From sequence record PQ516281: a DNA stretch of 64,000 bases; one strand, given 5' to 3'. Under the pieces are notes generated by a model that worked only from the letters and a program-made list of their open reading frames with translations, made no database searches and was not told the origin of the DNA. Each line of letters opens with the position of its first letter. Within the stretch, counting starts at the first letter, position 1. Origin of the DNA: Escherichia phage vB_EQ1. Shown in pieces: positions 205-1,204 of the stretch. The translations under genes and the position numbers were made by a program.

Positions 205-1204
205 TTATGATACTAATTCAATCCATGCAGGACGCAGAACATCTTGCACCATTCTGACTAATTCTTTCTTAACAAGATTCGGATTATCAGATGATGTTAA
301 TACAATACCTTCACGAGAAGTTTCTTCCAGAATATCTTGAACAGTCAATCCCATCACTTTGCCAAAATCTTTTGGCGTTACAGTCCCAATCTTAGAAATC
401 ACATTATTAATACGATTTAATGTAACATAACAAGCTAGAACATCAAGCAAGTTTTTGTCAGTTTCGGTTAATGGAACCTGAGTTTTAATAGGCTTATCAG
501 ACTTTTTCTTTTCACTGAATTTAGAGTTCTTGCACTTAATAGCTACACGAGTACCGTTTGGCAGCCATTTAGGGGAAACAAGGCTTCAGAACATAACCTT
601 CCGCAGTATTATCACCAATAACATTAGCATCAAATACGCAATTATTTGCTTCGACAAGGTCTTCTGACGCAGTAGCATTATAAGCGGCTAAGACAGAATC
701 AAGGTCGTTTGGAATCATGATAAGAGCATCAAATGTGCCACGACCAAGCATTGGTGCCATTTTAAAACCGAATTCATTACAGAAATCTTGCATTTCGTAA
801 TCGGTCAAATACGTATTATCACCACTTTCTGTATTGATAAGGATATCGAACACATAAAAATCTTTTTCACCGTAGTCAACACCTTTCTGGATTCCACCAC
901 CAGCGAATTCACCAAAGACCTGATATGATACAGCTCGAGAACTACCCATTACTTCTTGAACGTTTTTAATAGCCTTATCATACTTCTTGAGTACAATTTC
1001 ATAACCATAAAAATCTTCTGCTGGAAGAATAGGGCCTGTGCGCTTGGCGCATGTGACGTTGTCACGTTCAATTATTAACGAGAAGTTGGTCCCATGGATT
1101 TTCTCACGTGCTACCCAAACACCAGTAGTCAAACCATTAGTGTAGAGTTTTTCAATAAACTTAGAGTTGTAGTGGTTTTCAAGACTGCTGTATTTCTTAA
1201 ACAT
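205..1204 (-). pseudogene. rnlB: RNA ligase 2 (RnlB) split into two ORFs by a frameshift
   Basis: ORF 569..1204 matches T4 Rnl2 N-terminal nucleotidyltransferase domain (KIHGTN lysine motif); ORF 205..450 matches Rnl2 C-terminus (…VQDVLRPAWIELVS) in a different frame; frames join across a C4 run (plus-strand GGGG about 572-575). Confidence 0.8.

Follow-up and report, generated by a model that had tools for sequence, protein, structure and literature searches.

The rnlB gene (RNA ligase 2, Rnl2) of this phage is a normal Mosigvirus gene with one private extra base, and it is not a programmed frameshift site. The extra base turns a run of three C residues (C3) into a run of four (C4). On balance, and with modest confidence, we favor a recent C3-to-C4 insertion, private to one lineage, in an otherwise intact Mosigvirus rnlB, a gene without known role.

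The window (the whole 64-kb stretch of DNA analyzed here) derives from a Mosigvirus (RB69-like Straboviridae) and shows 97–99% identity to many E. coli phages over 25 kb. The rnlB gene occupies positions 205–1204 on the minus strand, and it is flanked in the window by gene 24 (capsid vertex) and by 24.2, 24.3 and hoc, as in RB69 and T4. As in T4 and RB69, where rnlB (gp24.1) has the same locus between gene 24 and 24.2/24.3/hoc, all the nucleotidyltransferase motifs and the T4_Rnl2_C domain are encoded, but the gene in the window is split by an extra C between motif IV and motif V. The features of the locus are as follows.

Positions 569–1204, minus strand: 0-frame part of rnlB, with ATG at 1204–1202, 211 codons and TAA at 571–569; Rnl2 residues 1–211, motifs I–IV.
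Positions 205–573, minus strand: +1-frame part of rnlB, from Pro211/Lys212 to Ser332, with TAA at 207–205; motif V (AIKCK) and T4_Rnl2_C.
Positions 572–575, minus strand: the C4 run, GGGG when read on the plus strand, made up of the last base of the UUC codon and the CCC codon.
Positions 569–577, minus strand: UUC_CCC_UAA, a shifty-stop-like cassette created by the insertion; read from the sequence, with a putative function by analogy with pheL.
Positions 586–588, minus strand: TGA of the +1 frame, the upstream limit of the 17-nt interval 585–569.
Positions 176–203, minus strand: intrinsic-terminator-like hairpin with a 12-bp stem and a T-run, directly 3′ of rnlB.
Positions 1296–1321, minus strand: putative T4-type middle promoter 5′ of rnlB, with TGCTTTA at 1321–1315, 13 nt, and TATAAT at 1301–1296.

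A terminator is annotated in MM02 at the position equivalent to the hairpin. The TGCTTTA resembles a MotA box, and together with the TATAAT it is similar to the T4 middle-promoter consensus and marks a candidate promoter; this promoter is missing from the sigma-70 scan because it has no −35 element.

On the gene strand the break reads ...GAA GGT TAT GTT CTG AAG CCT TGT TTC CCC TAA ATG GCT..., and two ORFs are present on the minus strand, 569..1204 (211 aa) and 205..450 (81 aa, TTG start). Deletion of one base of the C4 run gave a 999-nt ORF that encodes a 332-aa Rnl2 with ...CFPKWLPNG... across the junction, where T4 has ...CYPSWLRNG.... The repaired protein aligned over its full length with T4 Rnl2 (PDB 2hvq, E=1e-169), and its identity was at least 99% to the Rnl2 of 18 further phage records and 75.7% to T4-type Rnl2. 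The preliminary description had identified the gene as rnlB, placed the break at this point between these two ORFs and proposed that removal of one C would rejoin the frames, and we confirm it in all these respects. In the alignment with relatives, the ancestral TGT-TTC-CCT-AAA-TGG is converted to TGT-TTC-CCC-TAA by one inserted C, and translation ends after residue 211. Since a TAA pre-existed out of frame in TTC-CCT-AAA, insertion of a C necessarily gives TTC-CCC-TAA. Upstream, the +1 frame is closed by the TGA at 588–586, so that any change of frame is confined to positions 585–569.

The last residue before the break corresponds to T4 Pro213, which puts the break past motif IV (EGYVLK) but ahead of motif V (AIKCK; T4 K225/K227), and thus inside the nucleotidyltransferase domain and not at the inter-domain border. 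In the repaired protein the Pfam RNA_ligase domain covers residues 30–223 and T4_Rnl2_C residues 246–320. The RNA_ligase match ended at profile position 157 of 171 in the 211-aa product vs. 169 of 171 in the repaired protein. The 0-frame ORF contains the motif I lysine (EKIHGTN, pattern KxHGxN) together with motifs III, IIIa and IV (EGYVLK), and matched RNA_ligase with 1.9e-23 over its 211 aa. The motif V lysines are not in one polypeptide with motif I: AIKCK is encoded only in the +1 frame, 3′ of the TAA, and would join motif I only via a one-base repair or a +1 shift. The +1-frame translation matched T4_Rnl2_C (PF18043) with 2.1e-23, and this domain is present in the DNA, although out of frame with the N-terminal part. 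The earlier statement that both domains are intact is therefore right for the C-terminal domain and wrong for the adenylyltransferase domain, which is broken 5′ of motif V. K225 and K227 touch the AMP phosphate in catalysis (PMC3149579), and ligation step 2 needs the Rnl2 C-terminal domain (PMC3884662). Because the break precedes motif V and the C-terminal domain is lost, the 211-aa product is expected to have no ligase activity.

The distribution of the extra C was analyzed with a site query of 101 nt centered on the break, which matched 179 phage records. Only one of them, OQ031495.1, shared C4 and matched at 100%; the other 178 spanned 100 nt for the 101-nt query, that is, they carry C3. 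The next best three, moha, ESh15 and PTE-Eco05, had the same local haplotype except for a one-base gap at the extra C. When the site was aligned with six relatives, C4 was again seen in OQ031495.1 only; RB69, AV111, TU01 and MM02 read TGT TTC CCT AAA TGG, and in NicPhage TTT replaces TTC. An exact 24-mer of the C4 allele had 0 matches in IMG/VR and 0 in JGI metagenome contigs, and in a 153-billion-gene index the exact 211-aa product was encoded on OQ031495.1 only.

An Rnl2 homologue is held by 1395 phage records (Straboviridae). In an evenly spread sample of them (n=60) checked by tblastn, 59 gave an uninterrupted single Rnl2 match. Among all relatives examined, C3 is found at the site in every one but OQ031495.1, and nearly all have rnlB as a single ORF of 332–334 codons. 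Downstream of the break, the 121 codons 212–332 of the window showed 0 nucleotide differences when compared with moskry and AV110. A comparison of rnlB in close relatives had been proposed in the preliminary description; it now confines C4 to the near-identical OQ031495.1 and reveals no downstream decay. With one carrier in 179 relatives, no metagenomic match and 59 of 60 sampled loci uninterrupted, the interrupted arrangement is private rather than conserved. AV111 and TU01 (locus records 397–1396) are interrupted elsewhere in rnlB, each by a private insertion of one base in the A-rich GAAAAGAAAAAG tract, and each is annotated as two 'RNA ligase' CDS.

If the allele is genuine, a single C inserted in the ancestral TTC-CCT-AAA would have placed the stop after residue 211. 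The event would be young, because codons 212–332 show no decay and no difference from moskry and AV110. What Rnl2 does during T4 infection is not known (PMC3884662), so that loss of rnlB is plausibly tolerated. Such a loss would nevertheless be unusual, since a single ORF is kept in nearly all Straboviridae (59 of the 60 sampled), and this counts against a genuine insertion.

The main alternative is an error of sequencing, assembly or consensus. In that case rnlB of the phage would in truth be intact, with C3, and the fourth C would be an artefact in the window and in its sibling draft. This is possible, if rather unlikely. The change is a one-base length difference in a homopolymer, and the perfectly kept downstream part of rnlB is what an error would leave behind. 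Splits of this type, whatever their cause, do turn up in deposited records, as the private one-base A-run insertions that divide rnlB in AV111 and TU01 indicate. To learn whether the window carries a general homopolymer-error signature, the whole syntenic 64 kb was surveyed for split ORFs by tblastn with the 147 moskry and AV110 ORFs that encode at least 70 aa. Only rnlB was divided between two frames, and other 1-nt indels relative to these phages were in intergenic DNA or in the divergent, hypervariable gp37 region. The window has 293 homopolymer runs of at least 5 nt, up to A9, and none of them causes a split ORF, although a homopolymer-prone platform would miscall these runs before a C3 run. 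The survey found no general homopolymer-error signature in the window, which weakens the explanation by error. Because rnlB alone is split in 64 kb and its downstream part is identical to that of relatives, a genuine insertion is favored over a consensus error.

The other carrier, OQ031495.1, bears on both explanations. It is a near-identical draft from Iran, flagged UNVERIFIED and with many N-runs. Its differences from the window are confined to the flanks of N-runs, the hoc repeats and a fragmentary tip of gp37, where N-separated islands have only 56–80% identity to the window. It has a private extra C in rIIB (window ∼58761) that is found neither in the window nor in AV110, and errors or odd variants therefore do occur in that project. 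These properties add to the case for an error. On the other side, the window is free of the rIIB insertion and of the N-runs of the draft yet keeps C4, as would be expected if the reads support C4, although the two assemblies are perhaps not independent. We did not accept OQ031495.1 as independent confirmation of C4: wherever the draft is not poorly assembled it matches the window exactly, and the two may come from one phage or from one data set. A sequencing platform for the MRostami phages was not found in the literature.

The rnlB gene of the window is a mosaic: when compared with moskry and AV110 it has 33–34 differences in gene nt 1–624 and 0 in nt 625–999. The switch from 5% divergence to identity with these two phages sits 6–9 nt upstream of the C run. 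No link between this recombination junction and the indel can be claimed, since moha, ESh15 and PTE-Eco05 combine this local haplotype with C3. Other differences from relatives were recorded in the window. The hoc gene (positions 1866–3284, minus strand) encodes a Hoc protein of 472 aa with repeated Ig-like modules; one 288-bp hoc repeat unit, present in the window and in moskry, is missing from AV110 and OQ031495.1, by either copy-number variation or assembly collapse of the repeat. Two AV110 inserts are missing from the window: one of 1016 bp with a homing endonuclease, which splits td (thymidylate synthase) at window ∼34911, and a homing-endonuclease insert of 676 bp that separates genes 59 and 33, at window ∼38765. 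Against moskry and AV110, the intergenic DNA at window 21762–21825 has three one-base indels in 65 nt, which OQ031495.1 has as well and which come with substitutions.

Beside a homopolymer sequencing error and a true inactivating mutation, the two explanations weighed above, the preliminary description had raised a +1 ribosomal frameshift at CCC-UAA, in an arrangement resembling the prfB-type site. A conserved, programmed prfB-type frameshift is not supported, and from its sequence the CCC-UAA arrangement does not appear to be an evolved recoding signal. A shift-prone P-site codon, an in-frame stop and the possibility of +1 re-pairing are all there (CCC_UAA, with CCU in the +1 frame). Conservation among orthologues is not: C4 is in one of 179 relatives, 59 of 60 loci are uninterrupted and IMG/VR and JGI yielded nothing, and the stop is an automatic consequence of the insertion. 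No Shine-Dalgarno-like stimulator was found 3 nt 5′ of the CCC codon, where the sequence upstream of CCC is GAAGCCTTGTTTC; the sole GAAGG lies ∼25 nt upstream of that codon. No stimulatory RNA structure was detected either, as the 121 nt around the site folded no better than shuffled controls (z=−0.55).

The rnlB site and prfB (RF2) both have a slippery P-site codon, then an in-frame stop, with the remainder of the protein in the +1 frame. Unlike prfB, which has CUU_UGA with an upstream Shine-Dalgarno sequence, rnlB has CCC_UAA without a stimulator and is not conserved, and since its product is an RNA ligase it lacks the autoregulatory logic of prfB. What stands of the proposed likeness is a slippery Pro codon followed by a stop; E. 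coli pheL, with its incidental UUC_CCC_UGA site, is a closer parallel than prfB itself. At both sites UUC (Phe) and CCC (Pro) precede a stop (TTC CCC at 577–572 in rnlB, in the E and P sites), tRNA-Pro could re-pair in +1, and shifting at pheL is incidental, not selected (PMC3082878). In contrast to pheL, the A-site codon of rnlB is UAA, followed by A, and not UGA; the −2 residue is Cys instead of Thr, and the site is inside a 332-codon gene rather than at the end of a leader peptide.

Two further groups of viral sites share part of this arrangement. The +1 sites of Listeria phages, Lactobacillus phage Q54 and Bacillus phage SPP1 also have CCC and a stop in a phage gene (cited in PMC3082878). 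They are conserved and give two useful structural products, whereas the rnlB site is private to one lineage and its short product has no motif V and thus lacks catalytic residues. The 'savior' indels, e.g., that in the G-run of herpesvirus thymidine kinase (PMC5009743), are likewise homopolymer indels in a viral non-structural gene, and in both cases low-level shifting could restore some enzyme; the rnlB insertion, however, shows no sign of selection. Transcriptional slippage was rejected, because known tracts of that kind are far longer than C4.

A genuine insertion may still be leaky. In E. coli, +1 shifting reaches at most ∼2% at a generic CCC_UGA. At UUC_CCC_UGA of pheL the incidental level in K-12 is 15%, a value dependent on the penultimate Phe, and CCC_UAA is used in phages Q54 and SPP1 (PMC3082878). 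At the rnlB site, the peptidyl-tRNA-Pro in the P site would re-pair from CCC (574–572) to CCU (573–571), and AAA (570–568) would enter the A site. The product of such a slip, ...CFPKW..., would be the exact wild-type protein, and for this reason the allele, if real, may be leaky rather than fully null. UAA is recognised by both release factors, and shifting is therefore expected to be below the pheL level. By analogy with the measured sites, about a percent to a few percent of ribosomes may slip +1 at UUC_CCC_UAA and make wild-type Rnl2, but frameshifting at UAA could also be negligible. ARAGORN found no tRNA gene in the 64-kb window, so that the tRNA-Pro involved in slippage would be host-derived or encoded elsewhere in the phage genome.

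A stronger version of leakiness would be a utilised shift, with full-length Rnl2 produced through efficient CCC_UAA slippage that is kept by selection, e.g., for a lower Rnl2 dosage, in the sense of a 'savior indel' (PMC5009743). We regard this as very improbable. The E-site and P-site codons are the same as those of the pheL site with its 15% shifting, CCC_UAA is employed by Q54 and SPP1, and the shifted product would equal the wild-type protein, with no decay downstream. A recent origin or an error would account for the absent decay just as well, however, and the stop is an automatic by-product of the insertion. The arrangement occurs in one of 179 close relatives, with 0 metagenomic matches; it has neither the upstream Shine-Dalgarno-like element nor a fold better than controls, and it ends in UAA, which terminates more strongly than the UGA found in the known E. 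coli cases. It is accordingly doubtful in the extreme that a genuine C4 would be kept for substantial +1 shifting, as a newly born recoding site that supplies a tuned, reduced amount of wild-type Rnl2 together with the 211-aa fragment.

Separate translation of the two ORFs, with an N-terminal fragment and a C-terminal domain that reassemble into an active ligase, is hardly credible. In its favor, T4 Rnl2(1–249) can by itself carry out steps 1 and 3 of ligation, the C-terminal domain forms a fold of its own (PMC3884662), and the 81-aa TTG-start ORF covers that domain. The break, however, is at residue 211 and the domain border near 243–249; both products would miss residues 212–251 with motif V (T4 K225/K227); no Shine-Dalgarno sequence is recognisable for the TTG at 450; and the ATG that overlaps the stop is in the wrong frame and opens a 0-frame ORF of just 10 codons. 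Reinitiation was rejected on the same grounds.

These data suggest that the case is an ordinary one, either a young inactivating and possibly leaky mutation or a consensus error, and its general biological importance is small. In annotation, rnlB of this phage should be marked as frameshifted or as a pseudogene, or corrected after resequencing, and should be entered neither as two "RNA ligase" CDS nor as a programmed frameshift. The case also calls for caution, because C-run indels ahead of a hidden stop codon automatically create shifty-stop look-alikes, here the pheL-like UUC_CCC_UAA. If the allele is real, the phage would be a natural rnlB-defective or leaky mutant beside many isogenic-like relatives with intact genes, and it could be a handy tool for learning what Rnl2 does in infection (PMC3884662).
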